Shown here piece by piece: positions 11,682-63,536 of a stretch of DNA of 64,000 nt. The notes beneath the pieces are model-generated. The model was given only the letters and a program-made list of their open reading frames with translations. It was not told the DNA's origin and did no database searches. Numbering within the stretch: position 1 is the stretch's first letter; each line of letters begins with the position of its first letter. Position numbers and translations under genes: made by a program. Origin of the DNA: an uncultured Gammaproteobacteria bacterium (GTDB lineage: Bacteria; Patescibacteriota; Microgenomatia; UBA8517); contig CAZYCE010000005.1 in NCBI GenBank assembly GCA_964645605.1, positions 362 to 64,361 of the forward strand, in the 5' to 3' direction.

Positions 11682-11702
11682 GAAAAATTGCTCCGATTTT
11701 GG

Positions 11703-11774: not shown

Positions 11775-12051
11775 AATTTTTCTACAGGCTTAATTCTACA
11801 ACAAACAAGAGTAAAACTCTATTGTTCAGAGGGATTAATTTCTTCAGACAAGGGCTTTAAGAAGTGCTTCACGAATATTTCTACCAGCAAACCAACTTTT
11901 AAGAAAAACTATGGCGTGCTTATTTTTGTTTGTCTCTCGAAGATAATATTTATTCACATGCCCACCCTTTTGGGAAACAATATTTGCTAATTCTTTTATC
12001 GAATATTTTGTGTAGATAATCTAAGTATACACCTTAACGAATGTTTATAAG

Positions 12052-38567: not shown

Positions 38568-38582
38568 GGTCTTCTCTTTTGT

Positions 38583-39269: not shown

Positions 39270-39275
39270 ATTTGG

Positions 39276-39818: not shown

Positions 39819-39823
39819 ATAAG

Positions 39824-40837: not shown

Positions 40838-40897
40838 GGCAGTTTATATTTCATTTAACACTAAAACAGGCAGTTGCGTCAAGGTTGGATAATTTAA

Positions 40898-41770: not shown

Positions 41771-41820
41771 TACATATCAGTTTAACAATACAAATAGGCA
41801 ATTGCAATTCTCGGCAAAAA

Positions 41821-42339: not shown

Positions 42340-42803
42340 TTTATTGATAAATCGGTAGCACTACTGACTTCATGGTTTCCTTTTGAATCCTGCCAGGTAA
42401 CTGTAGTTGTTACTCTTGCAACATTTTCTGGGCATTGTGGGTCCGGACAGTCAATAATTTCAACATACCGAGAAAAGATGGTATCCGGAATTGGTAAGCA
42501 AGTCTTTGAACTCTGGAAACTCGGCCATGCAGACGCTGTCGAGTGGGGAAGACTGGCAAAACAATAAACAAAACCAGGTTGGGTAATTTTTGTTTTGAAA
42601 GTTGTATCGTTATTACGAACTTGTCGAAGCCATTCCATCGTTTCCTGAACATAATTGGTAGCTAGATTTTTATCTCTGGCATAGGCAGAGTTCTGAATGG
42701 AATTTAGGGCCACTGCGGTTGTGCCGGTTATAATTAGAGCTATAATCCCCACCGCAATAACCACTTCGAAAAGTGATTGTCCAGAATGTATTTTTGTTTT
42801 CAT
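42336..42803 (-). CDS. Type IV minor pilin (class III signal peptide)
   Basis: 'SGQSLFEVVIAVGIIALI' prepilin-like N-terminus. Its 3' end overlaps the start of the downstream pilin gene 41821..42339 by 4 nt. Confidence 0.6.
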   Translation of the reverse strand: MKTKIHSGQSLFEVVIAVGIIALIITGTTAVALNSIQNSAYARDKNLATNYVQETMEWLRQVRNNDTTFKTKITQPGFVYCFASLPHSTASAWPSFQSSKTCLPIPDTIFSRYVEIIDCPDPQCPENVARVTTTVTWQDSKGNHEVSSATDLSIK

Positions 42804-43288
42804 TTAATTGATCCTCCGGAATTAATACTTATGGTTACCGAATTGTTCGTTGACTGTTGAGTAATTTTGATACGCGCAATACTGCCATTCGGAATATTTG
42901 TTCCCTGTCCCAAGACTTTAAAGACGGTAGGGTTCGGCTGAAAACCTGCAACATCAAATGATATTCCGTCCGGAAGAGTATATGATTTAATAAGTGGAGT
43001 CGCCCCACAAACAGCTTTAATTTCATAAGATGATGCCGATAAGGTCAATCCGAACTGAATACCGTCCAAGGATGAGGTGCATCCTGCTGGTTTTTCTCCC
43101 GAAAGAGACATTTGCTGGGCCAGACGTAAATCTCCCTCAACCTGCTTGGCAATTCCCAATAAAGTTTGGCGTCTGGAAAAACTTCTGTAACTTGCATACC
43201 CAACACTAAAAAGAATACCAATAATGGTCATTACCACCAAAACCTCAATGAGTGTATATCCGGACATTCGATATTTAAATTTCTTCAT
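42800..43288 (-). CDS. Pseudopilin, GspH/FimT-like
   Basis: 'MSGYTLIEVLVVMTIIGIL' N-methylation motif. Confidence 0.65.
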   Translation of the reverse strand: MKKFKYRMSGYTLIEVLVVMTIIGILFSVGYASYRSFSRRQTLLGIAKQVEGDLRLAQQMSLSGEKPAGCTSSLDGIQFGLTLSASSYEIKAVCGATPLIKSYTLPDGISFDVAGFQPNPTVFKVLGQGTNIPNGSIARIKITQQSTNNSVTISINSGGSIK

Positions 43289-43307
43289 TAGCGTACTTCC
43301 TCTTAAT

Positions 43308-43751
43308 TCAAGGGTTTATGATTTTGTAATTGCAACCGGCCCCGCAATTTGACCCGCAGGTTACCGAGGTTCCTCCCTGTTCGAGTGAGGCGCAAAGGGT
43401 GTATGTAATTCCGTCTGAAGAATAACTATAGCTTCGTGCAGGATCCATAGAATCCTTAGGGATTAAACTTGAGTATGTATTTGGGGATGGACAGCTGCCC
43501 ACCAAAGGACTGCCAAAACTTACCTGAGCAGTGAGCGGGTATTTTCCACAGTCTGCTTTGTACATTTCAATCGCACTTCTGATTTGCTCCAAATCCGCTT
43601 TTCTTTTACCATCGCGGGCTGATTTTCTGGCCTCCTGCATTCCAAAAACTGAAAGAGCGAGTAATATTCCCATAATAGATATGACAACCAAAAGTTCTAT
43701 CAAGGTAAAGGCGGAGTATTTATAGCTATATTTTATATTTTTATATCTCAT
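43308..43751 (-). CDS. Type IV pilin (PulG/PilA-like)
   Basis: 'SAFTLIELLVVISIMGILLAL', then 'ARDGKRKADL' (typical post-helix motif). Confidence 0.7.
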   Translation of the reverse strand: MRYKNIKYSYKYSAFTLIELLVVISIMGILLALSVFGMQEARKSARDGKRKADLEQIRSAIEMYKADCGKYPLTAQVSFGSPLVGSCPSPNTYSSLIPKDSMDPARSYSYSSDGITYTLCASLEQGGTSVTCGSNCGAGCNYKIINP

Positions 43752-43753
43752 GT

Positions 43754-44296
43754 TTATGGACAGGAATTTATATTTGGCTGGGACGTGCTACTAGAAACCG
43801 TGCCAGATGAACAAAGAAACCAATATCCTTCCACATTCTCTGTCTTTGACCACAAAATGTATTTTATTGCTTTTAAGCTTCCATCATTATTATCTCCGTC
43901 AGATTGGTAATGGTAAAAATATGTATTATCAGCATTAAATTTGGGATCGACGGGGCAGGTACCCTGAGGTAAACCCAAAGTGCCGAAGCAAAACTGTTCT
44001 GCCGAAGCATTTAAGCCTGTATACCACATTGGATACATGCCATTTTTTTTATCAGCTAAAATTTCAACAGCATTCTGATACCATCTGAGGTCGGATTTTC
44101 TCTTGGTATCTCTGGCTTGTTTTTGGGAAGACGTAAATGAAACGGTGGCAAGAGCTGCCAAAATTCCTATTATTGAAATAACAACCAAAAGTTCAATTAA
44201 AGTAAACCCGCGCTTCTGTTTTGTAATTTGCAACTTGTAATCTATGTTTTTCATTCTATGGTTCGACCGAATATTGGCAACCTGCCCCATCCGCAC
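43754..44296 (-). CDS. Type IV pilin
   Basis: 'KRGFTLIELLVVISIIGILAAL ... ARDTKRKSDL'. An internal Met (MKNIDYK, about 44254) would give a 16-aa leader. Confidence 0.7.
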   Translation of the reverse strand: MRMGQVANIRSNHRMKNIDYKLQITKQKRGFTLIELLVVISIIGILAALATVSFTSSQKQARDTKRKSDLRWYQNAVEILADKKNGMYPMWYTGLNASAEQFCFGTLGLPQGTCPVDPKFNADNTYFYHYQSDGDNNDGSLKAIKYILWSKTENVEGYWFLCSSGTVSSSTSQPNINSCP

Positions 44297-44696
44297 AAGT
44301 TAATATGTTTCCGTCTAGGTCCGTATCACATTTTGTATCGCTTTTATTTTCAAGGCAAGCAGTTAGTGTAAAAGTTTCATTAACCGGATCGAAGCTATAT
44401 TGATATGAATGGTCGGGAAGGGGATCTTTGGGAAGTGCATTCATGTAAACAGTGCTCCCTGAAGAAAAAGGCTCTCCCCATACAATTGCGGTTGCTGCCG
44501 GATAGCTTCCTACATCGTTATAATAAAGTCTGAGTGCCGTTCGAACACTGTTCATGTCGGCTTTACGCACAGCATCACGGGCACGACTTCTGGCAGCATT
44601 TAGATTTGCAACGATTAGTGTTGCCAAAATTCCAATAATAGAAACTACTACAAGAAGTTCGATAAGGGTAAATCCCTGTTTGGCAGCTTTAATCAT
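44256..44696 (-). CDS. Type IV pilin
   Basis: 'KQGFTLIELLVVVSIIGILATL ... ARDAVRKADM'. Confidence 0.7.
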   Translation of the reverse strand: MIKAAKQGFTLIELLVVVSIIGILATLIVANLNAARSRARDAVRKADMNSVRTALRLYYNDVGSYPAATAIVWGEPFSSGSTVYMNALPKDPLPDHSYQYSFDPVNETFTLTACLENKSDTKCDTDLDGNILTCADGAGCQYSVEP

Positions 44697-44730
44697 AATT
44701 TAATAATACTATAAAGTTCCACGCGTTACA

Positions 44731-45300
44731 TTAAAGACCTGGGTCTGTTGCCCTAATATTAGGACTGGTAATTGAAAAATTGCAAGAAGCCGAGCCGCAG
44801 GTTACCCCCTCCGGAAGGACGGGTGGGGTAGTACAGTTTCCTCCAATACAGGCGTTACTATCCTGTGAATTTTCCAAATGTGCATAAAGTTGGAAGCTTT
44901 GATTATTGTTGGTGGAGCGGTAATAATAATTTAGCCCACCGGAAGGGTCTTTCGGTATAGATTTCAAATAAACCGTCTTTCCGTCAGTAAATTGCTTTTC
45001 TTCATCGCCCCACTCACAAGAGGAACCCGTTCCGTTTTCGGGATCGTATTCACACCCTAAAATATTTCCAGCCAAAGAACCCGGGTATCGTTCATTGTCG
45101 TTATAAAAAAGTTCCATGGCTTTGGCTATTTGGCTGAGATCGGACTTTCTCCGGGCATCACGGGCCTTCATTTGGGATGTTTGAAATGACGTCAAACTAA
45201 TAACGGCAAGAATTCCCAGTATGGCGATAACAACCAAAAGCTCGACAAGTGTAAACCCTGACCTGAAGCTACGATTCCTATGACTTGAGTTCGGTTTCAT
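44731..45300 (-). CDS. Type IV pilin
   Basis: 'RSGFTLVELLVVIAILGILAVI ... ARDARRKSDL'. Confidence 0.7.
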   Translation of the reverse strand: MKPNSSHRNRSFRSGFTLVELLVVIAILGILAVISLTSFQTSQMKARDARRKSDLSQIAKAMELFYNDNERYPGSLAGNILGCEYDPENGTGSSCEWGDEEKQFTDGKTVYLKSIPKDPSGGLNYYYRSTNNNQSFQLYAHLENSQDSNACIGGNCTTPPVLPEGVTCGSASCNFSITSPNIRATDPGL

Positions 45301-45332
45301 TGGCAGTTTATCAGTCTATATCAATAATATTA

Positions 45333-45923
45333 CTACTTTTTAAGTAATCTCGCCGCATCTTCTTCTTCACATTGCCGTAAAGTCTTTGGAATATCACAAT
45401 TTACCGAACGGCCAATATTGCAAATTCTCGTGCCGCAGCCAAGTCCTTCCGCCACTATCCTGGCATCGACTTCGGGCTCATTACCTCCTTCCATAGAAGC
45501 AAATAATTGATACCTATCACCATCGCTAATGTAGCGATAGCTTGCTCCCTTTTGCCAATCAGGGTCACGAGGAAGAACAGTCATGTATTCTCTCTTGGTC
45601 AGAAGGTTTGCGAACGCATCTTGCCCCCATACGCAAGGAATTGAGTTTATTACCCAAAATCCTTTTTCGTCTTTGTAGGGGGCATCACCGGGTTTAAGAC
45701 AATCCACAATCCTTCCATCTTCCGATGATGGGGGATAAACACCAAAATCTATTTGATATTGGCCAATTGCACCCATAAGAGATCCCATATCATCCCTTCG
45801 AACTTGATCCCTGGAACGCCTAAGACTTGCAGCAAAATTGGGAATGGAAATGGTTGTAAGAATTATAAAAATTACTATTAAGCTGATGGTTTCCGATTTA
45901 GAAAATATTTTTACTTTATGCAT
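45333..45923 (-). CDS. Pilin-like protein with degenerate prepilin motif
   Basis: Retains the post-helix 'SRDQVRRDDM' block and has a hydrophobic N-terminus, but lacks the G|FTLIE cleavage/methylation motif (KSETISLIVIFIIL). Confidence 0.45.
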   Translation of the reverse strand: MHKVKIFSKSETISLIVIFIILTTISIPNFAASLRRSRDQVRRDDMGSLMGAIGQYQIDFGVYPPSSEDGRIVDCLKPGDAPYKDEKGFWVINSIPCVWGQDAFANLLTKREYMTVLPRDPDWQKGASYRYISDGDRYQLFASMEGGNEPEVDARIVAEGLGCGTRICNIGRSVNCDIPKTLRQCEEEDAARLLKK

Positions 45924-45924
45924 A

Positions 45925-46542
45925 CTATTCCGTGACTATGCATTCATTAGTTCCGATACACTCGACGCCAAGGCAACTTCCGTAGGTTGGTGTACATATG
46001 GGTTCACAACCCGAACCTTGAACTATCTGCTCTATCTGAACACATGTACCATCTATGCATCCATACGTATAGGGACACGAAACACTTCCGCCAACCGTAA
46101 TTTGTGGTGCATTCGGGGAAGAAACATAAAAGTTGTACAAGCTGCCCGGTCCTATACCCTCAAGAATTTGGGCATCATTTTTATTTTCCAAAACTGTATA
46201 TATCCTGAACCACTTTGCGCAATCTTGGCCGTCTGTTTCGTATATATACGGGCCTTTTGTATGCGGATCACAGGGAACATTGCTTAGATAGGGGTGTATC
46301 GGAATATCTACGGAGTAACCACAAGCCGTTAAAGCCGGCGGATAGCAATTGTGATCCTTTTCGTATTCTTCGACGGCTATTTTAATCCTGTTTAAGTCGG
46401 CTTTTCTTCGTGCGTCAAATCCTTTAGAAATTTGTTTAATGTAGGCAGTGGCCGCAAGTGCAATTAAAAGTCCAATGATTGCAACCACAACCAGCAGTTC
46501 AATTAAAGTAAAGGCCTTGTAAAGCTTTTCTGTCATATGCAA
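45925..46542 (-). CDS. Type IV pilin with Cys-rich C-terminal domain
   Basis: 'YKAFTLIELLVVVAIIGLLIAL ... ARRKADL'. The C-terminal half has at least 12 Cys, suggesting multiple disulfides. Confidence 0.65.
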   Translation of the reverse strand: MHMTEKLYKAFTLIELLVVVAIIGLLIALAATAYIKQISKGFDARRKADLNRIKIAVEEYEKDHNCYPPALTACGYSVDIPIHPYLSNVPCDPHTKGPYIYETDGQDCAKWFRIYTVLENKNDAQILEGIGPGSLYNFYVSSPNAPQITVGGSVSCPYTYGCIDGTCVQIEQIVQGSGCEPICTPTYGSCLGVECIGTNECIVTE

Positions 46543-47306
46543 CCAAAAAGGATTGATATTTTATCTCCAAATATAAATGTCAAGGCAATCCCGGCAATTA
46601 AAAACGGACCAAAGGCTATTTTGGTTTTCATTTTTGCCTTACCCAATAAAATAAGTATGGTTCCAACAATCCCCCCTGTCAAGAAAGATAAAAAGAGCCA
46701 GGTAGGAAGATTAACCAGCCCGACAAGCATTCCGCCAAATACGGCAAATTTAACATCCCCCAAACCCATTCCGCGCCCCTTTGTTAAAAGGTGGATAAGC
46801 ATCAAGAACGAGGCTGCAAGAAACCCCGGGAATAATGTGGTAAATATTGATTGGTGGGTAATAAATTGCGAATATATTAAGACTATAAAAATGCCGGCAA
46901 AAACCAGAGAGTCGGGGATTATCTGATGCTCCAAATCTATTACCAAAATAGTAAATAAGACAACAAATATCGCAAGCATCAGAATCAATTGAAAAATACC
47001 ATATCCGCCTTGAAAGGTTGATCCTTGCAAGGTGGAAAAATAATAGATCAAAGAGAAGCCTACACCCGATGTAAGCTCGATGGTGGGGTAGCGGATTGAA
47101 ATTTTCTTTTTACAGTTCCGGCAACGCCCGCCAAGAATCAGATAGGAAATAAGTGGAATATTGTCATACCAGGCAATTTGGTGTTCGCAATTCGGACACA
47201 TGCTCCTACCATTAACAAAAGATATATTTCTCGGAATTCGGTAGGAAATCGCCGCCGCGAAAGAGCCAAAACATAATCCGCAAACAAATAAAAAAAGGGC
47301 AATCAT
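46533..47306 (-). CDS. pilD: Prepilin peptidase (A24 family, PilD)
   Basis: N-terminal zinc-binding CxxC...CxxC (CPNCEHQ...CRNCKKK). Catalytic Asp-containing TM segments (ILVIDLEHQIIPD; GRGMGLGDVK). Confidence 0.85.
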   Translation of the reverse strand: MIALFLFVCGLCFGSFAAAISYRIPRNISFVNGRSMCPNCEHQIAWYDNIPLISYLILGGRCRNCKKKISIRYPTIELTSGVGFSLIYYFSTLQGSTFQGGYGIFQLILMLAIFVVLFTILVIDLEHQIIPDSLVFAGIFIVLIYSQFITHQSIFTTLFPGFLAASFLMLIHLLTKGRGMGLGDVKFAVFGGMLVGLVNLPTWLFLSFLTGGIVGTILILLGKAKMKTKIAFGPFLIAGIALTFIFGDKISILFGCI

Positions 47307-47334
47307 TAATTTATTTTAGCAGAAAGAAGACCCG

Positions 47335-47874
47335 TTAGGGGAGACAGGAATAATAGACTTCGTTAGCGGCATCACAGGCTTCGTCCGGAAAATCGTCGGG
47401 TGTACCGCTGGTGCATCTTTCTTTAGCTTCAGTCTTAAAAGAACTGGATAGAGGCTCAAAACAGACATAAGTGCTTTCGCCTTGCAATCCGGAATTATAT
47501 ACAAACAACTTATTATAATCTGCACCGGTTATTCTATCAGTAAAAGACGCCTTTATTTCACCTGTACCGACAGCACTTAACTTAGACAAGACTGCATCTG
47601 TACCATCATTCCAACCATCTCCAACCTCCACCCAGCCTGTGGGTTGTGAGGTTGTTGCTTCCGTTACCCAAGGATAATGACCAATCGAAGCATAATACCT
47701 GTCTACCGCACCCAAAAGCTGTTCCGCGTCGGAACGGCTACCCGTATCCCTGCTTCTATTAATTTGCTCAATGGGGTTAATGGCGGAAAGAACCGCGACT
47801 GCCAAAATACCTAGGACTGCGATAACTATAAGAAGTTCGATTAATGTGAAACCTCGAGCAGTTCTTTGTTTCAT
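47335..47874 (-). CDS. Type IV pilin (candidate major pilin, first pilin gene after pilC)
   Basis: 'ARGFTLIELLIVIAVLGILAVAVLSAI'. Located between pilC and pilD like pilA in many loci. Confidence 0.7.
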   Translation of the reverse strand: MKQRTARGFTLIELLIVIAVLGILAVAVLSAINPIEQINRSRDTGSRSDAEQLLGAVDRYYASIGHYPWVTEATTSQPTGWVEVGDGWNDGTDAVLSKLSAVGTGEIKASFTDRITGADYNKLFVYNSGLQGESTYVCFEPLSSSFKTEAKERCTSGTPDDFPDEACDAANEVYYSCLP

Positions 47875-47955
47875 ATTTGTTTAATAATTAAGTATCAATC
47901 CTACAAAAATTCTTGTCAATAGGCAATTTTGAACCTAAATATTACACCGTTTACT

Positions 47956-49161
47956 CTAAAAGGCGCTGGACAAACTATAAATCGGCAATATTACGGCAAT
48001 CACCAAAAATCCCACACCAAGCCCCAGTATAACCATTACAACCGGCTCGATTGCCGAGGTTAATCCCTTGACCTTCTCATCGCTTTCCACCTCAAATATA
48101 CGACTGAGGTTGCCCAATATTTCTTCCATTTTGCCGGTTTCCTCACCGACAGCCACCATCTGACTAAGAATAAACGGGAATGCTTCCGGGTGCTTTGAAA
48201 AGGCAAAAGCAACAGGGAAACCCTTTTCAACTTGATTGGCGGCATCCGTTAAGGCCTCCGAGATAATGGTGTTACCGGCAACATCGGAGCTGATATGCAG
48301 TGCCTCCAATATAGACACGCCCGCTCCCACCATCATAGAAAGGGTGCGGGTAAGATCTGTAAGAATTATCTGGCGCTGCAGCGGGCCATAAATCGGAATT
48401 TTGAATATCAGCTCATCTACCTTGCGTCTACCCTCGGGGGTTGCTTTAAAAAGGCGGAAAATATAAAAGCCCACCAATAAAACAGCAAAAATTACAAACC
48501 AATATTTTGTTACAAAACCGGATACGGCAATCAAAATTCTTGTCGGAGCCGGAAGTGTTGCATTCATATCCGAATAGAGTGACAAAAGTTTAGGGATAAC
48601 AAAGATTAGCATTACGACTGCAACAATAACCATCCCGACAATAATTATGATCGGGTAAATAAGGGCGCCTTTGACTTTACTGCCGAATTCCTGCTGCTTT
48701 TCCAGATTGTCCGCAAGTCTTAAAAGAACCGCATCAAGGACACCTCCCACTTCTCCCGATTTAACAAGAGCGATATATGTTTTTCCAAAAACCTGGGGGT
48801 GCTTCAAAAGGGCATTGGAAAAAGATTCTCCCGCCTCAACATCGGCAAGAAGCTGGGCAATAATTGCCTGAAGGGATTTTTTAGACTGTGAACGAAGGAT
48901 CAAAAGTGCCTCGGTAATGGGAAGGCCGGCATTGATCATCGTCGAAAGCTGGCGGGTGAAGGTGGCAACATCTGAGGACGTAACTTTTTCCTTTCTTTTA
49001 CCTATCAATGAGAATATCGAACCCATTTTGGGATTCAATAAAATCACAAAAAGTCCCTTGCTTTTTATAAGCTTTGCGGCAGCATTAGCATCCGGCGCCT
49101 CAACTTCGCCTTTTACTACTCTTCCGGCGTGATCTTTTGCTTTGTAATTGAAACGCTTCAT
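47956..49161 (-). CDS. pilC: Type IV pilus inner-membrane platform protein PilC (GspF family)
   Basis: Two GspF-type repeats, each with a cytoplasmic domain and TM helices. 401 aa. Confidence 0.85.
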   Translation of the reverse strand: MKRFNYKAKDHAGRVVKGEVEAPDANAAAKLIKSKGLFVILLNPKMGSIFSLIGKRKEKVTSSDVATFTRQLSTMINAGLPITEALLILRSQSKKSLQAIIAQLLADVEAGESFSNALLKHPQVFGKTYIALVKSGEVGGVLDAVLLRLADNLEKQQEFGSKVKGALIYPIIIIVGMVIVAVVMLIFVIPKLLSLYSDMNATLPAPTRILIAVSGFVTKYWFVIFAVLLVGFYIFRLFKATPEGRRKVDELIFKIPIYGPLQRQIILTDLTRTLSMMVGAGVSILEALHISSDVAGNTIISEALTDAANQVEKGFPVAFAFSKHPEAFPFILSQMVAVGEETGKMEEILGNLSRIFEVESDEKVKGLTSAIEPVVMVILGLGVGFLVIAVILPIYSLSSAF

Positions 49162-49172
49162 CGATGGGGTTT

Positions 49173-50231
49173 TTAAACGCCGCGGACCAGTCTCATTAAC
49201 TCGTCAGGTCTTAGGGACCATGTTTCCGCCTCTTCCAGTGTAACTTCTCCGTTTTTAACCAGAGTAGCAAGGGATTTCTCCAAGGTGGACATTCCGGTTT
49301 CCTGAGAAGTCTCAAGAATGCTTTCTATCTGGTGAGTCTTACCTTCACGAATGGCGGTTTTTATGGCGGTTGTTCCAAGCATGACCTCATAGGCAACGAC
49401 TCTACCTTTTTGGGTGGCCGGAATAAGCCTTTGAGAAAATACCGCCTCGATTACATTTGAAAGCTGAAGCTTGACCTGTTTTTGTTGCTCTTCGGGAAAA
49501 ACATCAACAATCCTGTCGATGGATTGGGCCGCCGAATTGGTATGCAGTGTGGCAAAAACAAGATGTCCGGTCTCGGCAACGGTCAGGGTCGCCGCAATGG
49601 TTTCATAATCGCGCATTTCTCCAACTAGCACAACGTCCGGGTCTTCCCTCAGAACAGATCTCAAGGCAATTTCCCAAGAGTGTGTGTCGCTTCTCATTTC
49701 CCTTTGGGAAATTATCGATTTGATTGGGTTAAAAATAAACTCAACGGGATCCTCAATTGTAACAATGTGACACGCCCTATTTTTATTGATTTCCTGAAGC
49801 ATTGTGGCAAGAGTAGTTGATTTTCCGTGACCAGTAGGTCCCGTAATTAAAACAAGTCCCTGCCTAAGGGTAGTAAAAGAATGCAGAAGCGGGGGAAGAC
49901 CCAGTGATTCCATGGTGGGAATTGTTAAAGGAATCAGTCTGAAGGCGGCCGCGTATGAATTTTTTTGTGTGTAAGCATTGACCCTAAATCTTCCTTTTTC
50001 CGAGAACGAAAGAGAAAAGTCCAGTTCTTTATTGACACTCAAGCGCTCCAATTGTTCGTTGGTAAGAATCTGTCTTAAAAGTTCACCTATCGCATCGGGA
50101 GTTAAAACACTTGTACCGGGAACCGGCGCAAGAACTCCATTGATTCTGATCATTGGCGGAATACCGACGATCAAATGAAGGTCACTGGCACTACTGTCTA
50201 CCACCATTTGGAGCAGTTGTTTGGTTTCCAT
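49173..50231 (-). CDS. pilT: Twitching-motility / pilus retraction ATPase PilT
   Basis: Walker A 'GPTGHGKSTT', Asp box, His box, and the PilT-specific 'AIREGKTHQIES' (AIRNLIREGK-like) motif. 352 aa. Confidence 0.85.
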   Translation of the reverse strand: METKQLLQMVVDSSASDLHLIVGIPPMIRINGVLAPVPGTSVLTPDAIGELLRQILTNEQLERLSVNKELDFSLSFSEKGRFRVNAYTQKNSYAAAFRLIPLTIPTMESLGLPPLLHSFTTLRQGLVLITGPTGHGKSTTLATMLQEINKNRACHIVTIEDPVEFIFNPIKSIISQREMRSDTHSWEIALRSVLREDPDVVLVGEMRDYETIAATLTVAETGHLVFATLHTNSAAQSIDRIVDVFPEEQQKQVKLQLSNVIEAVFSQRLIPATQKGRVVAYEVMLGTTAIKTAIREGKTHQIESILETSQETGMSTLEKSLATLVKNGEVTLEEAETWSLRPDELMRLVRGV

Positions 50232-50234
50232 ATT

Positions 50235-51983
50235 TTATTCTTGAGCAACACGCAGTACCTCTTCCACTGTAGTAATTCCTTCGACAACTTTCAAGTACCC
50301 ATCCTGTTTTAAGCTAATCATACCCTCTTCTTTACCCTGAGCATCTATTTCTGCAGCTGATGCACGTTCCAGAATTAATTTGCTGATTTTTTCCGTGACC
50401 GGCAAAACTTCAAAAATTCCGACTCTACCGTAATAACCGGAATTGCTACAATCCGGATCCCCCTTACCTTTATAAAACTTTACCTCCCCTTGAGGCTTCC
50501 AGAGCGGACCCAGTTCCTTTTGAACATTTTGCACAACCGGTGCTTCCGGAACATAAGCCTCCTTACAATCTTCGTGAATCCTTCTGACAACACGCTGCGC
50601 AACGATGCAGGTCATGGATGAAGCCAAAAGATACGGTTCCGCCCCCATATCCAATAAACGGGGAAGTGCACCGGATGCGTCATTGGTGTGCAAAGTAGAG
50701 AAAACCAAATGCCCGGTAAGAGAAGCTTGAATAGCCAAATCCGCAGTCTCTTGGTCACGGATCTCACCGACAAGAATAATGTTGGGGTCTTGCCTTAAAA
50801 ATGCCCTAAGTCCTCCCGCGAACGTAAGTCCCGCGGCAGGATTGATTTGAACCTGGTTAACGCCCGGAATTTTATACTCAACAGGGTCTTCCAGGGTCAC
50901 AATATTAACCTTCGAAGTGTTAAGTTTAGAGATGACGGAATATAAAGTAGTCGTTTTCCCGGAACCGGTCGGACCACAAATAAGTATGATCCCGTGGGGT
51001 CTTAGTATTGAATCCTGGAGATTTTTCAAACCCCTTCCCCTTAATCCAAGTTCAGGAAGATCGGGAACCCCACCGCTTTTTTTCAGAAGCCTCATAACGA
51101 TTTTTTCGCCCCAAGTGGTCGGCAAAGAGGATATACGGAGATCAACTTCCGCATCACTTCCTTTAAAATTAAATCTTCCGTCCTGAGGGATTCTTTTTTC
51201 ATCGATTTTCATTCCGCTTAAAATTTTTATTCTTGAAATAAGCGATTCGTGAAGCTCTTTAGGAATAGAAAGCTTTTCCTGTAATATTCCGTCAATACGG
51301 TAACGCACACGAGTGGACCTTTCCCCGGCCTCTATATGAACATCTGAGGCTCTGCTTTTAATGGCAAAGTCGAGTATTTGATCAACTATCTGGGCAATTT
51401 TCTCCTCACGAATAAATCCGCCTTTTGTTTTTTCGATTGCCGCAAGCTCTTCCTGTGCCGGAGCGACATCTTTCATCGCAGCGGTAACTTCTTGAGTAAG
51501 GGTGTTTGCGTAACGTGTCTGAATAAAATCTTCGATTTGCTTGGGAAGGGCTGCCTGGGGTTTAACGTGCATGCCCGTTTTTTGCTCGATAAACTCAATG
51601 GCGGAAAGATCCAAGGGGTCCGCCATTGCTAAAGTCATGCTTTTTTCTTTTATGTCTATTCCAACCGGGAAAACTTTAAAACGCTCGGCGACTTCAGACG
51701 GCAGGGCGGATAGAGCAGCCGGTGCAATGGGGGTAACCTCCAGATTAACAAAAGGAATATTATAAAGCTGAGATTTGGCCTGAACCAATTTTTCTTCAGG
51801 AACCATTTGTCCCTTCCTTATAATGTCCTCTTGTGGAGAGCCGCTTTGGATTTCAACCAGTTTTATCTTTTCAGCCCGTTTGCTGTCTAAAGCTCCAAGT
51901 TTAACCAAAACATCGGCAAGAGTATCTGGAACTCCATTTGTCTGATTTTGTACCGGTTGGGCAGTGGGCGGCATATCATCCAT
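50235..51983 (-). CDS. pilB: Type IV pilus assembly ATPase PilB (GspE family)
   Basis: N-terminal GSPII domain, Walker A 'GPTGSGKTTT', and a tetracysteine-like C-terminal region (CKEAY ... CSNSGYYGR). Confidence 0.85.
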   Translation of the reverse strand: MDDMPPTAQPVQNQTNGVPDTLADVLVKLGALDSKRAEKIKLVEIQSGSPQEDIIRKGQMVPEEKLVQAKSQLYNIPFVNLEVTPIAPAALSALPSEVAERFKVFPVGIDIKEKSMTLAMADPLDLSAIEFIEQKTGMHVKPQAALPKQIEDFIQTRYANTLTQEVTAAMKDVAPAQEELAAIEKTKGGFIREEKIAQIVDQILDFAIKSRASDVHIEAGERSTRVRYRIDGILQEKLSIPKELHESLISRIKILSGMKIDEKRIPQDGRFNFKGSDAEVDLRISSLPTTWGEKIVMRLLKKSGGVPDLPELGLRGRGLKNLQDSILRPHGIILICGPTGSGKTTTLYSVISKLNTSKVNIVTLEDPVEYKIPGVNQVQINPAAGLTFAGGLRAFLRQDPNIILVGEIRDQETADLAIQASLTGHLVFSTLHTNDASGALPRLLDMGAEPYLLASSMTCIVAQRVVRRIHEDCKEAYVPEAPVVQNVQKELGPLWKPQGEVKFYKGKGDPDCSNSGYYGRVGIFEVLPVTEKISKLILERASAAEIDAQGKEEGMISLKQDGYLKVVEGITTVEEVLRVAQE

Positions 51984-57641: not shown

Positions 57642-58295
57642 TTGAACTCCGTCCGGTTTAGATACTATACTGATGGTAGCAGCATGAGACGTTTTTCATT
57701 TGTCCTCATTGTAACGGGAATTGCAATTATTCTTTTTATCTTCGGTCCTGTCATTAAACAAGAGCTGGGTTACACCTTTGACAAATGGGCCGGTGTCAGA
57801 CACTCGGTTGAACCAAATGCTGCTTTAAATTTTCAAAAGCCAATTGTAATCCCAAATACGGATTTTTCGATAATTATTCCGAAGATAAACGCTTCCGCTC
57901 CGGTTATAGATGATGTTAATTCCACCGATTCCGCGGAGTATCTTAAAGCTCTAAAAAATGGCGTTGCCCATGCCAGGGGAACTCCTTATCCCGGACAGAT
58001 TGGAAACGTGTATCTTTTTGCCCACTCAACCGACGCTTTTTACAATGTAGGCAGATACAATGCGGTATTCTTCCTGATAGGGCATCTTACCCCGGGCGAT
58101 GAAATTGACATTTTTTACCGGGGCAGACTTTATAAATATGTTGTTTATGACAAAAAAGTAGTTGATCCTACAAGTGTTGAGTATTTGGGAACTTTAATAG
58201 ACGGTGAGAAAACATTGACGCTCCAAACTTGCTATCCTCCCGGGACAACACTAAAGAGACTTGTAGTTTTGGCAAAATTGGGTAACCTAGAATAG
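57642..58295 (+). CDS. Sortase (transpeptidase, class A/E-like)
   Basis: N-terminal TM anchor, catalytic His 'YLFAHS', Cys in 'TLTLQTCYP' (TLxTC), and Arg in 'TTLKRLVV'. Confidence 0.75.
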
Positions 58296-58315
58296 TTATT
58301 GGCGTGGGGATAAAT

Positions 58316-58343
58316 TTGACAACCCCTAATCTGATAGTATAAT
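58316..58343 (+). promoter_or_regulatory. Sigma70-type promoter (TTGACA-16-TATAAT) of the giant surface protein gene
   Basis: TTGACA 58316..58321 and TATAAT 58338..58343. The ATG is only about 10 nt downstream of the predicted TSS. Confidence 0.45.
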
Positions 58344-58364
58344 CGGAAATTAGATGAAGAAATT
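58330..58364 (+). repeat. 35-bp direct repeat copy A (TCTGATAGTATAATCGGAAATTAGATGAAGAAATT): -10 box + 5'UTR + start codon module
   Basis: Identical 35-mer at 62932..62966. Both copies span the TATAAT, the short leader, and the ATGAAGAAA start of a signal peptide. Confidence 0.85.
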
Positions 58365-61300
58365 GTCTTCGTTCATTGCTACTTTCTCTCTGCTGGCAAA
58401 TTCTGTTTTTGCTCCATTGTCTGTTTTAGCGGAAGAATCCCCGTCGCCGGAACCGACACAAACCCCTGCCGATATAACAATTGCACCATCGAAGAGTCCT
58501 TCTCCGGCACCCATATCCTTACCTGAGGTTGTCACCACAAATGAAGCAACGCCAACTTCAACACCAACTCCAATTCCCGAAATATCCGCTTTGGAAACTA
58601 TACCAACCCCCATACCCACCTCTGCACCCGAAACAAACAATTTTTCAGACTTAGAAAATATACAAACATCCGAAACAAGTGCCACGCTAGTCCCAACATC
58701 TGAGTGGACTTTTGAAAAAGTTGAATTAAATAAAGAATATGAAAGCCGGGGGGTTAAATTAACTTTTACCAAATTACCGGAAAATTCCGGAAATATAAAA
58801 ATAGAAGAAATTACCTTAACGCCGGAACAAATTAAACAAACTGGCTCACTTTCTGACAAGGCTTATGACATAACTTCCGATATGGCCGACGGTTCATTTA
58901 CTTACAACCTAACACTACCGGTTCCGGAATCCGCAAAAGATAAAAATGTAGATGTAAAGTTCGCCGAAGACATTTCCGAAATTAATTCCGCTCAAACAGT
59001 TGATAATACTATTATTAACACCGCCACCTCCGTTTCCGTCTCCGCCCTCGACCACTTTACTATTTTTGTGGTAACCACACCGGTACAGGATCCTGGTGGA
59101 GCATGCATAGACGTTACAGGAGCAACTAGTACTGATAAATGCTTTAACACTATTAAAGCCGCTATCAACGCCGCTATTGCCGGTGACACTATTAACGTTG
59201 CAGCTGGAACATACTTTGAGAATATTAATATAAATAAAAGTGTAGTTTTAGAAGGTATTGGTGACACTATCATTAAGCCTGACGTTCCATCACAACCTAT
59301 TATTACAATTTCTACTAGTGGGGTTAGTATAAAAAATATTGATATCGTAGGTACGGATAGTAATAGCCATGGAATTTATGTTCAAGGTAGTGGGCATAAT
59401 ACTATTTTGACGAATGTTTCTTCTACACATAATGGTGGAAATGGTATAGAGGTCAGTATCTCTGGAACACTAAATGATATCAAATTGAATAATTGTAATC
59501 TTAGTTACAATAACATTGGTTTTAGAACAGGTACTTCTTCAGGAATTAAAGGTTTAACCTTAACTGATGTCATTGCTGATTATAATCAAACCGCAGGATT
59601 ATATTTTAATGGCCCAATAACTGGATTAAATCTCAAAGGGGGAAGTTATAGCTACAACAAAGGTTCATCCGACCCTACTAATGGAGTAGGAATCTACGCC
59701 ACCCAATTTAATAACTTTGATACAAGCAATCAACTCTCAATCACATTAGAAGATTTTAGTGCCGATAATAATACTAGGGGAGTTATTTTAAACAAAACTT
59801 ATGGTCCTTTTTCAATTCTTAATGCATCTGTAAGTAATAATTCAGAAGAAGGTATAACCTTTGCTCCAGGTAAAGATATTTCTAGCGAAATAAGGTTGGA
59901 TAATCTAATTGTTAATAACAACTCTCTCTCTAACCTTTGGGTTATTTCCTATGGGACTTTTCATATATCTAACTTAAAAATAAGCAATTCCGAATTTAAA
60001 GATAGTAAAGATAATTCTTCACTAGGAAGAGGTTATGGCTTGTGGTTAGATGTCTTCGCTGATTCTCATCTTTCAGGTGTTGAAGTAAAAGGTAATGACT
60101 TTACAGGGAATAATACTGGAATATATTTGAATACACGTACCAGTTCAGGTACCCTAACGAATATCACCATAGAGGAAAACAATATATTCGGAAATACACA
60201 GGCTGGGGTAAATAACGTATCGTCAACAGTAGTAGATGCTACACACAACTGGTGGGGACATATAACAGGCCCTTCAAGAACAGATGTTGGCTCAGGGGAT
60301 TCTGTTAGCGCAAATGTTACCTATCAGGAATGGCTATGTGGACCTTATCCTACAAATTCAAATTGGGTTAGTGAAGTAGGTGTGTGTAAATTAGAAGCAC
60401 CCACACAAACAGGATACAACATTAACGATGGTACTACTGAATCCGAGCCTAGAAACCCTAACCAAATAGCTTGCACTGGAGGATACACAAATATAAATGG
60501 TATGTCTGTTCATTGGACTGATATGTCTAATGGAGATCCATTGATGAAATACATCCGACAATATTCTACAAATGGAGTTAATTGGTATGGAAATGAAATA
60601 TATTCTAAACCATATACAAACTATCGAAGTTTTGGTAGTGGTATAGAAGGGAAATACTATTCACAAGTTAAAGCATTCTATGATGTAGATAATGATAATA
60701 TATATGATACTAATGAGCCGATATCAGGTTGGAGCAATATATGTAGTATTACCTTCGATAAGACAACCCCTACCATATCCAATGTTAATGTTGATAAAAC
60801 CTTTGTAAAAGCAGGAGATACAGTAACAATAACAGCTAATGTAACCGATAATGGTGGTGTAAGCGCAGTATCCGCAGATTTTTCATACAATGAAAATTAC
60901 ACTTCAAGACCAACACCTACATCTGTAACTATGACTAAAACTTCTGGTAACACCTACCAGGTGCAATACACAGTACCATCAAGTTGGTCAGATGGAACAA
61001 TGTATATCAAAGTTGCTGCAAATGATTTAACGGGATCTAATTTGGTGAGGAGCACTGAATATAAGACTGTTCTAGTTGATAATACTCCTCCTTCTACACC
61101 ACAAATGTTAGGATTTAATAACCCAACACTATCATGTGGGGCAATTACTAGCGCTAATGTGGTAACCGTTGATTGGAGTGATTCAACAGATGACTTAGGG
61201 AGTGGCGTAAAGGGATATAACTATGAAATTAATTATCCGACTACAACGGGAGGAAGAGCCACCTATAATGCATTCTTTACAATATCAGAATATAGGGGTT

Positions 61301-62931
61301 CCCTTAATGAAGGATTACACCAAATAAAAGTACAAGCAGTAGATAATGCAGGAAATGTGTCTGCATGGACATCGTTATGTAATATAACATCTGATACGAT
61401 TGCACCAGATATACAAATAACCGCACCAACATCTACTCACCTAACAGGTATAGTAGAAATTAAAGGTACTGTCACTGACGCAAATCCACATCACTATTGG
61501 TTTGTAATTGAAAATAGCTTAGGGCTGAGAATAGTTAATCTAGGCCAAATAAATGACTCAACCTCTTTTACGAATAAGCTACTTCTTACCTGGGATACAA
61601 ACTCACTCCCTGATGGACAATACACAATAAAATTAGAAGCTAGAGATTCTGCAGACAACAAAGATAGTGGTTCAGTACAGTGGTTATTTGTAACAGTTGA
61701 CAATACGAAACCAACTGTAGATTTGCAATTAAATGTTAATGATCAGGGTTTTAAAGCAGTCTTTAGTGAAGATGTAAACGCAGTAGATGCAACCAATTCT
61801 GCTAATTACTTCTTAAAAAACTGGCCTACAGTTGAAAATACGAGTGGTGATCTATCGGGAGATGCCAATATTATCTATAATTCGGCAAATAAAACAGCAA
61901 CAATAAGCTTAACTCATGACAATTGGCACATCTCTCCGGAACAAGAATGGGGAGTAAAGAACATTCATGATTTGGCCGGTAATTTATTAAGTCCTTATAG
62001 TGAATATTCAACGCCAAATGAAAATCCTGAGGGATCATGGGTAAACCCAACGGAAGGTGGTGTTGTTTCCGGAAATGTTGCTTTAAACTTTAAAGCTGAT
62101 GATGGATCCAATGGTTCCGGAATCAAAGATATCACTTATAAATACAAGGCGGTGGGGGAGGCTAATTTTAGCAATATTATTGGAAACTCTTGGAACACAA
62201 CAGGGCTTACACTTGATGATTATATTCTAAGAGCAATCGTTACTGACAATGCAGGTAATGTCGCAGGAGATAAGGGAGAATTTGATATAAAAGTAGGCGT
62301 AGCCGCTGTTGCTTCGAATCTAAGAACCTCGTCTCCGTATCCGGGTGAAATTGTCATTTCCTGGCATACAAACCATCCGACAACATCGCAAGTTGTCTAT
62401 GACACAATGCCTCACTTTACAGCCGACTCCAGTCTTCAAAATTACGGCTACGCGTCTTCAACAGGCAAAGATACTAATAAAGTATCTGACCATTCGGTTA
62501 CGATCACAGGTCTTCAGCAGGGAGTTCCTTATTATTTCAGAACACTATCTGAAGGTTCTCCTGTAGCGATAAGTGCTGAATCGTCCTTTAGAACACTGAC
62601 AAGTGCAGGCGCTCCCGGGCCTTCGGGCAATGCGGGTGGGGGAGTTTCGGGTATTACCGCACCTACACTGCTTCCTGGCCAAACCCAAGGATTAGCCTTA
62701 GCATACACAGAATCTGAAAATAATAACTTACAAGCCGCATTGGAAGAAGTTGCGGCAGATAATCCCGATGCTCTTGGCGCATCGCAAACACCTACTCCCG
62801 AAGTTCTGGGTACTGAAACAAGTACTAGTAATAATACATGGAAAATTATTTCTATTATCGTTGCGGTAGTTCTGGTAGTCGGTTACGGATTCTACAGACT
62901 AAACAAAAAAGCAAAATTTGAAATCCGTTAG
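58354..62931 (+). CDS. Giant secreted cell-surface protein (1525 aa): signal peptide, Pro/Ser/Thr linker, right-handed parallel beta-helix (PbH1/pectate-lyase-like) region, Ig/FN3-like domains, C-terminal hydrophobic anchor with basic tail
   Basis: Signal peptide MKKLSSFIATFSLLANSVFAPLSVLA|EE. Many Asn/Gly-rich 22-25-aa turns (NNTRGVIL, NGIEVSISG, NNTGIYLN, etc.) typical of beta-helix repeats. The C-terminus '...TWKIISIIVAVVLVVGYGFYRLNKKAKFEIR' is a hydrophobic helix plus a charged tail. Directly downstream of a sortase gene. Confidence 0.8.
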   Translation: MKKLSSFIATFSLLANSVFAPLSVLAEESPSPEPTQTPADITIAPSKSPSPAPISLPEVVTTNEATPTSTPTPIPEISALETIPTPIPTSAPETNNFSDLENIQTSETSATLVPTSEWTFEKVELNKEYESRGVKLTFTKLPENSGNIKIEEITLTPEQIKQTGSLSDKAYDITSDMADGSFTYNLTLPVPESAKDKNVDVKFAEDISEINSAQTVDNTIINTATSVSVSALDHFTIFVVTTPVQDPGGACIDVTGATSTDKCFNTIKAAINAAIAGDTINVAAGTYFENININKSVVLEGIGDTIIKPDVPSQPIITISTSGVSIKNIDIVGTDSNSHGIYVQGSGHNTILTNVSSTHNGGNGIEVSISGTLNDIKLNNCNLSYNNIGFRTGTSSGIKGLTLTDVIADYNQTAGLYFNGPITGLNLKGGSYSYNKGSSDPTNGVGIYATQFNNFDTSNQLSITLEDFSADNNTRGVILNKTYGPFSILNASVSNNSEEGITFAPGKDISSEIRLDNLIVNNNSLSNLWVISYGTFHISNLKISNSEFKDSKDNSSLGRGYGLWLDVFADSHLSGVEVKGNDFTGNNTGIYLNTRTSSGTLTNITIEENNIFGNTQAGVNNVSSTVVDATHNWWGHITGPSRTDVGSGDSVSANVTYQEWLCGPYPTNSNWVSEVGVCKLEAPTQTGYNINDGTTESEPRNPNQIACTGGYTNINGMSVHWTDMSNGDPLMKYIRQYSTNGVNWYGNEIYSKPYTNYRSFGSGIEGKYYSQVKAFYDVDNDNIYDTNEPISGWSNICSITFDKTTPTISNVNVDKTFVKAGDTVTITANVTDNGGVSAVSADFSYNENYTSRPTPTSVTMTKTSGNTYQVQYTVPSSWSDGTMYIKVAANDLTGSNLVRSTEYKTVLVDNTPPSTPQMLGFNNPTLSCGAITSANVVTVDWSDSTDDLGSGVKGYNYEINYPTTTGGRATYNAFFTISEYRGSLNEGLHQIKVQAVDNAGNVSAWTSLCNITSDTIAPDIQITAPTSTHLTGIVEIKGTVTDANPHHYWFVIENSLGLRIVNLGQINDSTSFTNKLLLTWDTNSLPDGQYTIKLEARDSADNKDSGSVQWLFVTVDNTKPTVDLQLNVNDQGFKAVFSEDVNAVDATNSANYFLKNWPTVENTSGDLSGDANIIYNSANKTATISLTHDNWHISPEQEWGVKNIHDLAGNLLSPYSEYSTPNENPEGSWVNPTEGGVVSGNVALNFKADDGSNGSGIKDITYKYKAVGEANFSNIIGNSWNTTGLTLDDYILRAIVTDNAGNVAGDKGEFDIKVGVAAVASNLRTSSPYPGEIVISWHTNHPTTSQVVYDTMPHFTADSSLQNYGYASSTGKDTNKVSDHSVTITGLQQGVPYYFRTLSEGSPVAISAESSFRTLTSAGAPGPSGNAGGGVSGITAPTLLPGQTQGLALAYTESENNNLQAALEEVAADNPDALGASQTPTPEVLGTETSTSNNTWKIISIIVAVVLVVGYGFYRLNKKAKFEIR

Positions 62932-62966
62932 TCTGATAGTATAATCGGAAATTAGATGAAGAAATT
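62932..62966 (+). repeat. 35-bp direct repeat copy B (same promoter/5'UTR/start module)
   Basis: Exact match to 58330..58364. It begins 1 nt after the stop of the giant gene, with TTGAAA -35 at 62918..62923 inside the giant gene's 3' end. Confidence 0.85.
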
Positions 62967-63342
62967 AATCTCATTTCTGGCAGCTTCCACCGTTCTTCTG
63001 AATTCAGTACTTGCCCCCGTGTCCGTTTTAGCTCAAGAGACAACTCCAACACCCGAAGCAACAACTGCCCCGACTGAACAGCCAACGGTAACCCCTGATG
63101 CGACCACTTCTGAAATCGCAACACCGACTCCAATTGAAACAATGGACCCTGAAGCAACACCAAGCCCAACTCCTACGGCAACAATATCGCCGAATAATGT
63201 TGTTAATAAGATCAATGAGTTTGCTGCGACCACCCCCCAGCCCTTCAGATGGATTCTAACGCACAAAAAGATCACAATCGGCATTCTCTTTCTGGGTGCC
63301 GCCGCATATTTATTTTTAAGAGGAAAGTCCCGCAATAAATAA
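62956..63342 (+). CDS. Small secreted surface protein (128 aa), paralogous at its N- and C-terminal ends to the giant protein
   Basis: Signal peptide MKKLISFLAASTVLLNSVLAPVSVLA|QE (cf. the giant protein), Thr/Pro-rich linker, C-terminal hydrophobic helix plus a basic tail (ITIGILFLGAAAYLFLRGKSRNK). Confidence 0.6.
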   Translation: MKKLISFLAASTVLLNSVLAPVSVLAQETTPTPEATTAPTEQPTVTPDATTSEIATPTPIETMDPEATPSPTPTATISPNNVVNKINEFAATTPQPFRWILTHKKITIGILFLGAAAYLFLRGKSRNK

Positions 63343-63350
63343 AATAAATA

Positions 63351-63366
63351 GATGGATGGATGGATG
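63351..63366. repeat. Tetranucleotide microsatellite (ATGG)x4
   Basis: atggatggatggatgg, 9 nt after the stop of the small surface protein gene. Confidence 0.8.
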
Positions 63367-63536
63367 GAATAAGTAGATTCCCACTCAAATTTTTGGATAT
63401 GACACTCAAGGACAGTCCTTGTTAACTTATAGGAAGGTTCCCATTGCTTCTGGTGAGTAGAAAGGATAAAATGTAGTGAGGCTAAGTTAGCCTCGATTAT
63501 TTTTTGACAAATTTATTGATTTGATATTTTTTTAAT

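Follow-up and report, generated by a model that had tools for sequence, protein, structure and literature searches.

What can a sortase be doing beside a giant surface protein that carries no recognisable sortase signal? The question is raised by a 64,000-nt stretch of contig CAZYCE010000005.1 (assembly GCA_964645605.1), from an uncultured bacterium of the Microgenomatia, in which a sortase gene is followed by a gene for a 1525-aa secreted protein (hereafter the giant) and by a 128-aa open reading frame (ORF). This whole stretch is called the window, and positions are counted from its first letter. For bacteria of the Candidate Phyla Radiation (CPR, or Patescibacteria), which live attached to other microbes, the large surface proteins are prime candidates for host recognition; to our knowledge, the display of these proteins is essentially unstudied. 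The reading that we favour, with a probability of about 0.6, is that the window holds a Microgenomates sortase/adhesin locus of fixed position whose cargo has been swapped for one lacking the LPXTG signal, the present giant being held in the membrane.

An intact sortase gene precedes a giant protein without an LPXTG signal

The sortase gene (57684..58295, + strand) encodes 203 aa. Its frame is open from a TTG at 57642, and the start is probably Met15, at 57684, because homologs of about 203 aa align from that residue; more than 1400 homologs were found, with lengths mainly of 201-205 aa. A preliminary description of this DNA had named a sortase from its TLxTC cysteine, LFAHS histidine and LKR arginine motifs, and this was borne out: the protein reaches 84.3 bits against the Pfam Sortase family (PF04203, peptidase C60; cutoff 26.6) and 43.3 bits against TIGR01076 sortase_fam (cutoff 39.35), and H114, C183 and R192 are invariant in an alignment of 16 sortases. 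These residues lie in the motifs FAHS (His114, 58017-58028), QTCYPPG (Cys183, 58224-58244) and LKRL (Arg192 in LKR, 58251-58262), downstream of an N-terminal membrane anchor predicted from sequence only at aa 4-23 of the 203-aa form (57693-57752). Among the NCBIfam class models, the best scores were 46.1 bits for SrtD (cutoff 140), 46.0 for class C (160), 44.9 for class D (165) and 39.6 for class E (160), and the protein falls far under every NCBIfam cutoff for the curated classes A-F (140-166). The nearest solved structures are class D and class C sortases; the Cys and Arg of the class D sortase 4d70 align with those of the window sortase, whose His adjoins the GH motif of 4d70. Judged by these scores and residues, the protein is a genuine sortase outside all curated classes. 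Nearly all Microgenomates were already known to have a sortase (PMC6744442). By the names of its homologs, the window comes from a Microgenomates member of the CPR that resembles Shapiro- or Woesebacteria. The window also encodes a class A penicillin-binding protein (PBP), UppP and an SLT transglycosylase; peptidoglycan is therefore expected to be made and a wall acceptor should exist.

The giant gene (58354..62931, +) starts 58 nt past the sortase stop codon, as first described. Its product ends in EVLGTET (aa 1483-1489), STSNNTWK, the hydrophobic helix IISIIVAVVLVVGYGFY (I1498-Y1514, 62845-62895) and the basic tail RLNKKAKFEIR (62896-62928), so that the C-terminal helix and tail (62845..62928, +) are reached without an LPXTG. 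The element E1483-V-L-G-T-E-T1489 (62800..62820, +), a VLG..T motif, lies 11 aa before the anchor helix. The 128-aa ORF ends in a helix (aa 106-121) and the basic segment RGKSRNK. A scan of the last 60 aa for [LIVM][PA]x[TAS]G found the pattern in neither protein, in agreement with the first reading of the two tails, and the other window ORFs of at least 70 aa gave one pentapeptide match only (IADTG, ORF at 6515-7126), without a C-terminal helix and basic tail. No NCBIfam anchor model, TIGR01167/Gram_pos_anchor included, matches the tail of the giant or of the 128-aa ORF; with TIGR01167 LPXTG_anchor, a relative's tail scored 16.0 bits (cutoff 15.9) and the window tail stayed below. Models for PEP-CTERM, PGF-CTERM and GlyGly-CTERM matched neither six representative tails (E <=10) nor the whole proteins.

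Three explanations of the giant tail were set aside. The sequence LPGQTQG lies 86 aa from the C-terminus, does not have the LPXTG form and is not conserved in the tail of the closest homolog, P0122; the earlier judgement that it is too distant for a sorting signal thus stands. Decay of an LPXTG in place, suggested by a spacing between VLG and helix equal to that of LPATG tails, was rejected because P0122 and P0123 keep the same LPXTG-less tail (EVLG[TA]ET...NNTWKII). Finally, descent of the C-terminal ~170 aa of the giant from the partner protein found in related loci had a BLAST E value of 3e-6 in its favour, but a profile of 17 partners gave only 7 bits.

Related loci pair the same sortase family with LPXTG giants

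The locus was compared with 80 genome loci encoding relatives of the sortase and with several metagenome loci, a survey extending over 1.375 Mb. These loci share the gene order type IV pilus genes, holB, gyrB, Cu-oxidase_4, H+-PPase (proton pyrophosphatase), sortase, giant, small protein and gyrA. A canonical LP[AD][TA]G, typically QVLGASTELPATG, followed by a helix and a basic tail, closes the giant at 18 related Microgenomates loci, while at about 10 loci, the window included, the giant beside the sortase lacks LPXTG. The LPXTG-type giants are 1300-2650 aa long and the annotated ones carry SpaA_4, SdrD_B and CLIPPER (also DUF11) domains. They are followed by a secreted partner of ~305 aa, which matches no Pfam family; start and stop codons of the two genes usually overlap (-8 to -14 nt). 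The partner tail reads ...GSVLGTEA...NKINEFA..TP.PF[RK]WILTHKKISIG, with the variant FAKERTKITxG, before a helix and a basic tail, and it constitutes a non-LPXTG membrane anchor.

Throughout the survey, true LPXTG tails were all located at most three genes from a sortase. Beyond that distance, the regular expression matched one internal segment of a membrane protein and one tail at a locus without a called sortase ORF. The sortases themselves do not differ according to their neighbour: those beside LPXTG giants and those beside LPXTG-less giants are up to 92% identical, FAHS and QTCYPPG....R are present in 28/28 compared proteins, and no alignment column separates the two groups (18 LPXTG and 10 LPXTG-less loci, n=28). 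In this set of 28, the proteins with LPXTG-less neighbours are dispersed over the family, and the idea of a specificity switch was set aside because the alignment has no discriminating column. Since 18 relatives pair the same family with LP[AD][TA]G giants and LPXTG tails cluster at sortases, the window sortase is most likely an ordinary LPXTG enzyme, and on the simplest reading of these comparisons the neighbouring giant would not be a canonical sortase substrate. The preliminary description had instead proposed, as one possibility, a divergent sorting motif for a Patescibacteria-type sortase, which the 18 canonical loci and the lack of distinguishing residues in the sortases do not support.

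Evidence for exchange of cargo at a fixed slot

The closest homolog of the giant, P0122, is encoded in the same slot of locus L088 and has the same tail, EVLGTETSAGNNTWKII. The two proteins are 67% identical over the N-terminal 260 aa and 38% over the C-terminal 690 aa; their central heads differ, the beta-helix head of the window giant being absent from P0122. A second comparison involves loci L088 and L081, of nearly identical organisms, whose gyrA genes are 95% identical in DNA and 100% in protein, yet whose cassettes are different: L081 carries an LPATG giant and a full 308-aa partner. The short ORF that follows the giant in L088 is made of the signal-peptide region of the L081 giant (10962-11014, 89%) and the 3' end of the L081 partner gene (16398-16543, 87%), which, as far as this alignment tells, corresponds to a 5.4-kb deletion.

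The same kind of remnant is found in the window as the 128-aa ORF (62956..63342, +). This ORF joins a giant-type signal peptide (aa 1-26) and a Pro/Thr-rich linker to the anchor module of a partner, composed of NNVVNKINEFAATTPQPFRWILTHKK (63193-63270), the helix (63271-63318) and the basic tail (63319-63339), all on the + strand. Residues 1-92 match the N-termini of giants of relatives (E 5e-25) and residues 44-118 match the C-terminus of the ~305-aa partner (E 3e-29, 63% identity). By its two halves, the ORF is a deletion chimera in which an LPATG giant, since displaced, supplied the promoter and signal peptide and its partner the anchor module. It had first been taken for a small paralog of the giant. 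The ORF is real and paralogy is not: identity with the window giant is 35% over 128 aa, and the likeness is limited to the signal peptide, the Pro/Thr-rich linker and the general architecture of the tail. Likewise, the sequence FAATTPQP, put forward before as a candidate motif of this ORF, belongs to the conserved anchor module of the partner. An (ATGG)4 microsatellite directly follows the ORF's stop codon (63350-63366) and is kept in L088 at ~5258-5275.

The giant gene is flanked by a 125-nt direct repeat (74% identity, spacing 4602). Copy 1 (58312..58436, +) covers the promoter, the short leader and the signal-peptide coding region of the giant; the promoter, TTGACA-16-TATAAT (58316-58343, +), matches the consensus at 12/12 positions and ends 10 nt before the ATG. 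Copy 2 (62914..63038, +) contains a copy of the promoter, TTGAAA-16-TATAAT (62918-62945, +), and the signal-peptide coding region of the 128-aa ORF. The promoter/signal-peptide region of the repeat is conserved in L088 and L081, and the coding part of copy 2 groups with the LPATG giant of L081 and apart from that of the window. An intrinsic terminator with an 8-bp stem and a T-run (63477..63505, +) closes the cassette before gyrA (ATG at 63538). The cleavage region of the signal peptide (PVSVLA↓QETTPTP, the arrow marking the cleavage site) resembles the tail motif region GSVLGTEATPSPTP, and this likeness may have mediated the fusion that gave the 128-aa ORF.

Two further observations concern the cassette. 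No clear Shine-Dalgarno sequence precedes the giant or the 128-aa ORF (58316-58353, 62918-62955), and the layout is the same in L088 and L081; since the -10 box stands only 10 nt before the ATG, both mRNAs may be leaderless or nearly so. A Y1 transposase of the IS200/IS605 insertion sequence type lies between cassette and gyrA in L088 (5417-6094, -) and L090 (4119-4796, -). Both of these loci hold LPXTG-less giants, the window is without this transposase, and the enzyme may have a role in cassette turnover.

A conserved tail motif in CPR surface proteins

The first description of the giant had picked VLGTETSTS as the nearest candidate for a signal, and regarded the lack of any conserved motif upstream of the hydrophobic tail as an argument against processing. 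A conserved motif was found there, and VLGTETSTS is part of it. The sample consisted of the 120 best homologs of the giant, which are mosaic CPR surface proteins; 94 of them are anchored, meaning that an uncharged C-terminal segment of at least 14 aa is followed by a basic tail. Within 60 aa before the helix, [VI]LG occurs in 83/94 anchored homologs, where it is 36-fold denser than elsewhere in these proteins. The motif follows the consensus G-F-x-[GP]-E-V-L-G-[AET]-[SET]-T, often present twice per tail, and the spacing between motif and helix is mostly 7-12 aa (full range 4-56 aa). P0122 and P0123 conserve it. In the locus survey, the motif was present in 83/144 anchored ORFs (58%) against 5.9% of random internal windows (p ~1e-62), and in 42/91 once the +1 to +3 neighbours of the sortase were removed; it was seen in Microgenomates, Moraniibacteriota and other CPR lineages. 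Among NCBIfam and Pfam models, none fits the VLG tails, and no description of a [VI]LG..T tail was found in the literature on CPR sorting signals or on the motif itself.

The relation of this motif to LPXTG could be read from the same tails. VLG lies 2-6 aa upstream of LP.TG in 16 of the 18 LPXTG tails detected by regular expression, and in the locus survey VLG tails turn up near sortases and far from them alike. Because the two motifs share tails and VLG is not tied to the sortase, VLG is not a replacement for LPXTG and their roles differ. Two tails are of interest beside this: QVLGASTEGQVLGASTDYAKTGG in the 222-aa +1 ORF of locus L049 and QVLGASTMAGTG in the 247-aa +3 ORF of locus L005, each followed by a helix, may carry the variant sortase motifs YAKTG and MAGTG after the same VLGAST element, to judge by their sequences. 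L049 also encodes a second, different sortase-like ORF.

What the motif does bears directly on the fate of the giant. It is possible, and we hold this only tentatively, that the tail of [VI]LG..T, helix and basic residues is a CPR-wide sorting or processing signal ("VLG-CTERM") with a reader of its own, or a docking element of CPR sortases. The giant and hundreds of large CPR surface proteins would then be cleaved, modified or wall-docked at VLG and not merely tethered to the membrane, and the anchor module of the 128-aa ORF could belong to the same machinery. In the strongest rival to our reading, which remains the less probable of the two, the reader is not the sortase; it would be a shedding protease, an enzyme like signal peptidase, an O-glycosyltransferase or an unrecognised sorting enzyme, and the motif would be the site at which cutting, modification or docking near the wall takes place in CPR surface proteins. 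Such a reader is compatible with the history of cassette exchange, but it changes the predicted fate of the giant. The 36-fold enrichment before the helix, the excess over background that persists without sortase neighbours, the spread over CPR lineages and the setting of the motif in otherwise unconserved low-complexity linkers all argue for it, as does the resemblance of the motif region GSVLGTEATPSPTP to the protein's own signal-peptidase site. Against this, no candidate enzyme was found, nor any curated model or paper for the motif, and a helix spacing of 4-56 aa is loose for a membrane-embedded processing enzyme. Signal peptidase normally wants its helix upstream of the cleavage site, not downstream. 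Moreover, many of the proteins counted are related mosaics, so that the instances are not fully independent.

A possible function for the 128-aa ORF

The 128-aa ORF might be more than a relic. Between the window and L088, its last 64 codons differ by 15 synonymous and 6 non-synonymous changes, giving a ratio of non-synonymous to synonymous rates (dN/dS) of 0.10, compared with 0.18 for the sortase; by this measure the anchor module is under purifying selection. We considered whether the ORF is a functional small membrane protein, a partner of the sortase or of the cargo by analogy with actinobacterial SafA (PMC9282373), and find this rather unlikely. A function would explain why the ORF was retained after loss of the ectodomain, and the dN/dS value, the ORF's own near-consensus promoter, intact signal peptide and terminator, and the conservation of the module in ~305-aa partners and in giants such as P0167 and P0193 are all in its favour. 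However, the L088 remnant has lost its start codon and n-region, the F.W motif is absent from many partners, which have FAKERTKITxG in its place, and the estimate of selection comes from 64 codons of one pair of sequences. A search of 5.8 billion proteins returned only the query and no second form without an ectodomain.

Does the sortase read the tail motif?

The idea preferred in the preliminary description, namely that the adjacent sortase processes the LPXTG-less tails through VLG..T or another feature that they share, now appears improbable. An intact sortase stands directly upstream of LPXTG-less giants in about 10 loci with several independent origins, VLG is the one element common to LPXTG and non-LPXTG tails at the locus, and the enzyme falls outside the curated classes A-F. 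These points are outweighed by others: VLG and a perfect LPATG stand 2-6 aa apart in the same tails, the sortases paired with LPATG and with VLG-only giants are up to 92% identical and have no discriminating residues, VLG tails are not limited to sortase neighbourhoods, and in the partner proteins the motif is 30-45 aa from the helix. VLG also lacks the Pro and the scissile Thr-Gly pair that sortases use.

That the metagenome assembler misplaced the giant gene between the two repeat copies is very improbable: short-read Logan contigs of the same sample do stop at the repeat itself on either side of the giant gene, but the independent L088 assembly has the sortase, a homologous giant, the remnant and gyrA on one contig, and L091 has the PPase, the sortase and a VLG-only beta-helix giant on one contig.

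Domain architecture of the giant

The giant comprises a signal peptide (aa 1-26), a Pro/Thr-rich linker, a conserved N-terminal domain (aa 117-240), a beta-helix (~aa 250-640), immunoglobulin-like (Ig-like) and FN3-like domains (aa 800-1415; Big_7, Big_13, Big_3_3 and FN3-like by Pfam), a disordered stalk and the VLG..T tail. The signal peptide, Ig-like domains, C-terminal helix and basic tail that had been reported before were all recovered, and the long parallel beta-helix region was borne out by a profile match of the isolated segment. This right-handed parallel beta-helix head (59101..60273, +) has the N-terminal cap CFNTIKAAINAAIAGDTINVAAGTY, with the cap motif INVAAGTY, and a C-terminal NWWG cap. 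Pfam Beta_helix (PF13229; cutoff 25.9) gave 38.2 bits for the segment alone and 23.9 bits, under the cutoff, in a scan of the whole giant; 8/9 aligned homologs of the segment match PF13229 and 6 match NosD (PF05048). Weak sequence matches in the PDB (E ~3e-4) are to pectinesterase, the AlgE4 epimerase and a xylosidase. An AlphaFold2 model built on an alignment of 9 sequences is all-beta with periodic short strands, at low confidence (mean predicted local distance difference test, pLDDT, 46.9).

The N-terminal domain (aa 117-240, 58702-59073), which runs from EWTFEKVELNKEY to DHFTIFVV, has no Pfam match. It is common to the VLG-only giants of the window, L088 and L090 recurs at ~35% identity in the L081 giant of the LPATG type, and may form a tip or base peculiar to this locus.

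A model for the locus and the points against it

The model that we propose for the locus starts from its common form, in which a membrane-anchored sortase is followed by a giant ending in QVLGASTELPATG, a helix and a basic tail, and by the translationally coupled ~305-aa partner. The sortase would cleave LPAT↓G and link the LPATG giants to the wall. Cargo would be exchanged by homologous recombination through the shared promoter/signal-peptide sequences and the shared tail sequences. In the window, the earlier LPATG giant and most of its partner would have been deleted, the promoter and signal peptide being fused to the partner's anchor module to give the 128-aa ORF, and the slot is now occupied by a beta-helix/Ig giant with a tail of VLG..T, helix and basic residues. 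On this view, the lack of an LPXTG signal in the window giant goes back to the replacement of the usual LPXTG cargo. The direction and order of these recombination events are those that we infer.

Most probably, Sec exports the present giant, the C-terminal helix keeps it in the cytoplasmic membrane, and the sortase does not act on it. A long Ig/FN3 stalk would present the beta-helix head, which would serve as an adhesin or as a glycan-binding or glycan-cleaving factor. Presumably the intact sortase either acts on LPXTG substrates encoded in other parts of the genome or has none for the time being, and VLG..T would be a separate short linear motif in the wall-proximal stalk, widespread in CPR surface proteins. 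Membrane anchoring had been mentioned in the preliminary description as an alternative to wall linkage; it is now the better-supported of the two, retention itself being what we infer.

Several points weigh against this model. No ORF of the 64-kb window has an LPXTG tail, so that the role given to the sortase in this genome is a presumed one. An intact sortase is kept beside LPXTG-less giants in about 10 loci, and those giants could be its substrates. A tripartite tail of motif, helix and basic cluster is typical of sorting signals that undergo processing and not of plain anchors. The identification of aa ~250-640 as a right-handed beta-helix is argued from sequence profiles, because the AlphaFold model (pLDDT 47) is too poor to add to them. 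Lastly, the purifying selection that seems to act on the anchor module of the 128-aa ORF means that the label of remnant understates this ORF.

The comparison of loci shows the near-universal sortase of the Microgenomates at a fixed, recombination-prone cargo slot that holds different giants in close relatives, and this slot would be a plausible route to switch host range or antigenic type. The cognate motif is indicated to be an ordinary LPATG, which corrects the idea of a divergent motif for CPR sortases. As [VI]LG..T is shared by most of the anchored CPR surface proteins examined, it makes their display and processing testable with peptides and proteomics, and in genome annotation the VLG tail could serve as a rule to recognise CPR surface proteins missed by LPXTG models.

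Other features of the window and of related loci

The class A PBP of the window (30598-33207, -), with transglycosylase and transpeptidase domains, carries an extra C-terminal Big_7 domain and a long Pro/Thr-rich tail, TPTPIPTPTPLPTPSPTPSP. A large type IV pilus cluster (~38580-51983, -) lies upstream of the sortase locus and is syntenic in relatives; it comprises two T2SSE ATPases, a T2SSF protein, a prepilin peptidase (46533-47306) and at least 8 pilin or pseudopilin genes with N-termini of the GFTLIELL type. A 111-aa ORF at 11655-11990 (+), which opens with MLYPLSYKAEKLLRFWSGGRDLNPRPLPWQGSILP, resembles by its appearance a translated tRNA-like sequence. Among the related loci, gyrA of L085 (20337-end) carries an intein with a LAGLIDADG domain, and in L082 (19569-end) the partner gene is followed by a gene for a 1735-aa alpha-2-macroglobulin-like protein with a PT-HINT domain.

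Comparison with known systems

Beta-helix surface proteins (PF13229, PF05048; pectate-lyase-like fold) resemble the giant in the profile match, the cap motif and the weak similarity to pectinesterase and mannuronan C5-epimerase. In contrast with these proteins, the giant carries the domain as one part of a 1525-aa mosaic that also has a long Ig/FN3 stalk and a membrane anchor.

The VLG tails have the order of motif, helix and basic residues, on many unrelated ectodomains, in common with the signals of LPXTG/sortase, PEP-CTERM/exosortase, PGF-CTERM/archaeosortase and GlyGly-CTERM/rhombosortase. They differ in the motif, [VI]LG..T, in a spacing that is longer and more variable (4-56 aa) and in their coexistence with LPXTG. 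We know of no cognate processing enzyme for the VLG..T tail.

The 128-aa ORF can be likened to SafA of Actinobacteria, in that both would be small single-pass proteins of a sortase locus with an aromatic motif (PFRW in the ORF) outside the helix. SafA is a 52-aa single-pass protein encoded directly downstream of srtA, has no cleavable signal peptide, and binds the transmembrane helix of the sortase through an exoplasmic juxtamembrane FPW motif (PMC9282373). In contrast, the ORF is 128 aa long, has a signal peptide, is separated from the sortase by the giant and derives by deletion from a 305-aa protein, and PFRW is not universal in its family.

The closest likeness is to the sortase/LPXTG adhesin-pilin clusters of Gram-positive bacteria (class C/D, with SpaA/Cna-B-type substrates), in which, as in the window, a membrane-anchored His-Cys-Arg sortase is encoded beside a giant secreted protein. 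The substrates of the window's relatives are similar to theirs in the SpaA_4, SdrD_B and CLIPPER/DUF11 domains and in the end made of LPATG, helix and basic tail. Unlike these clusters, the window sortase belongs to a CPR-specific clade that reaches only ~46 bits on the class models and has a distinctive Cys motif, a conserved and coupled non-LPXTG partner follows the substrate of the relatives, and the window giant lacks LPXTG. The pairing of a sortase with an LPXTG adhesin is thus of a known kind, and the window is a variant of it in which the cognate substrate has been replaced.

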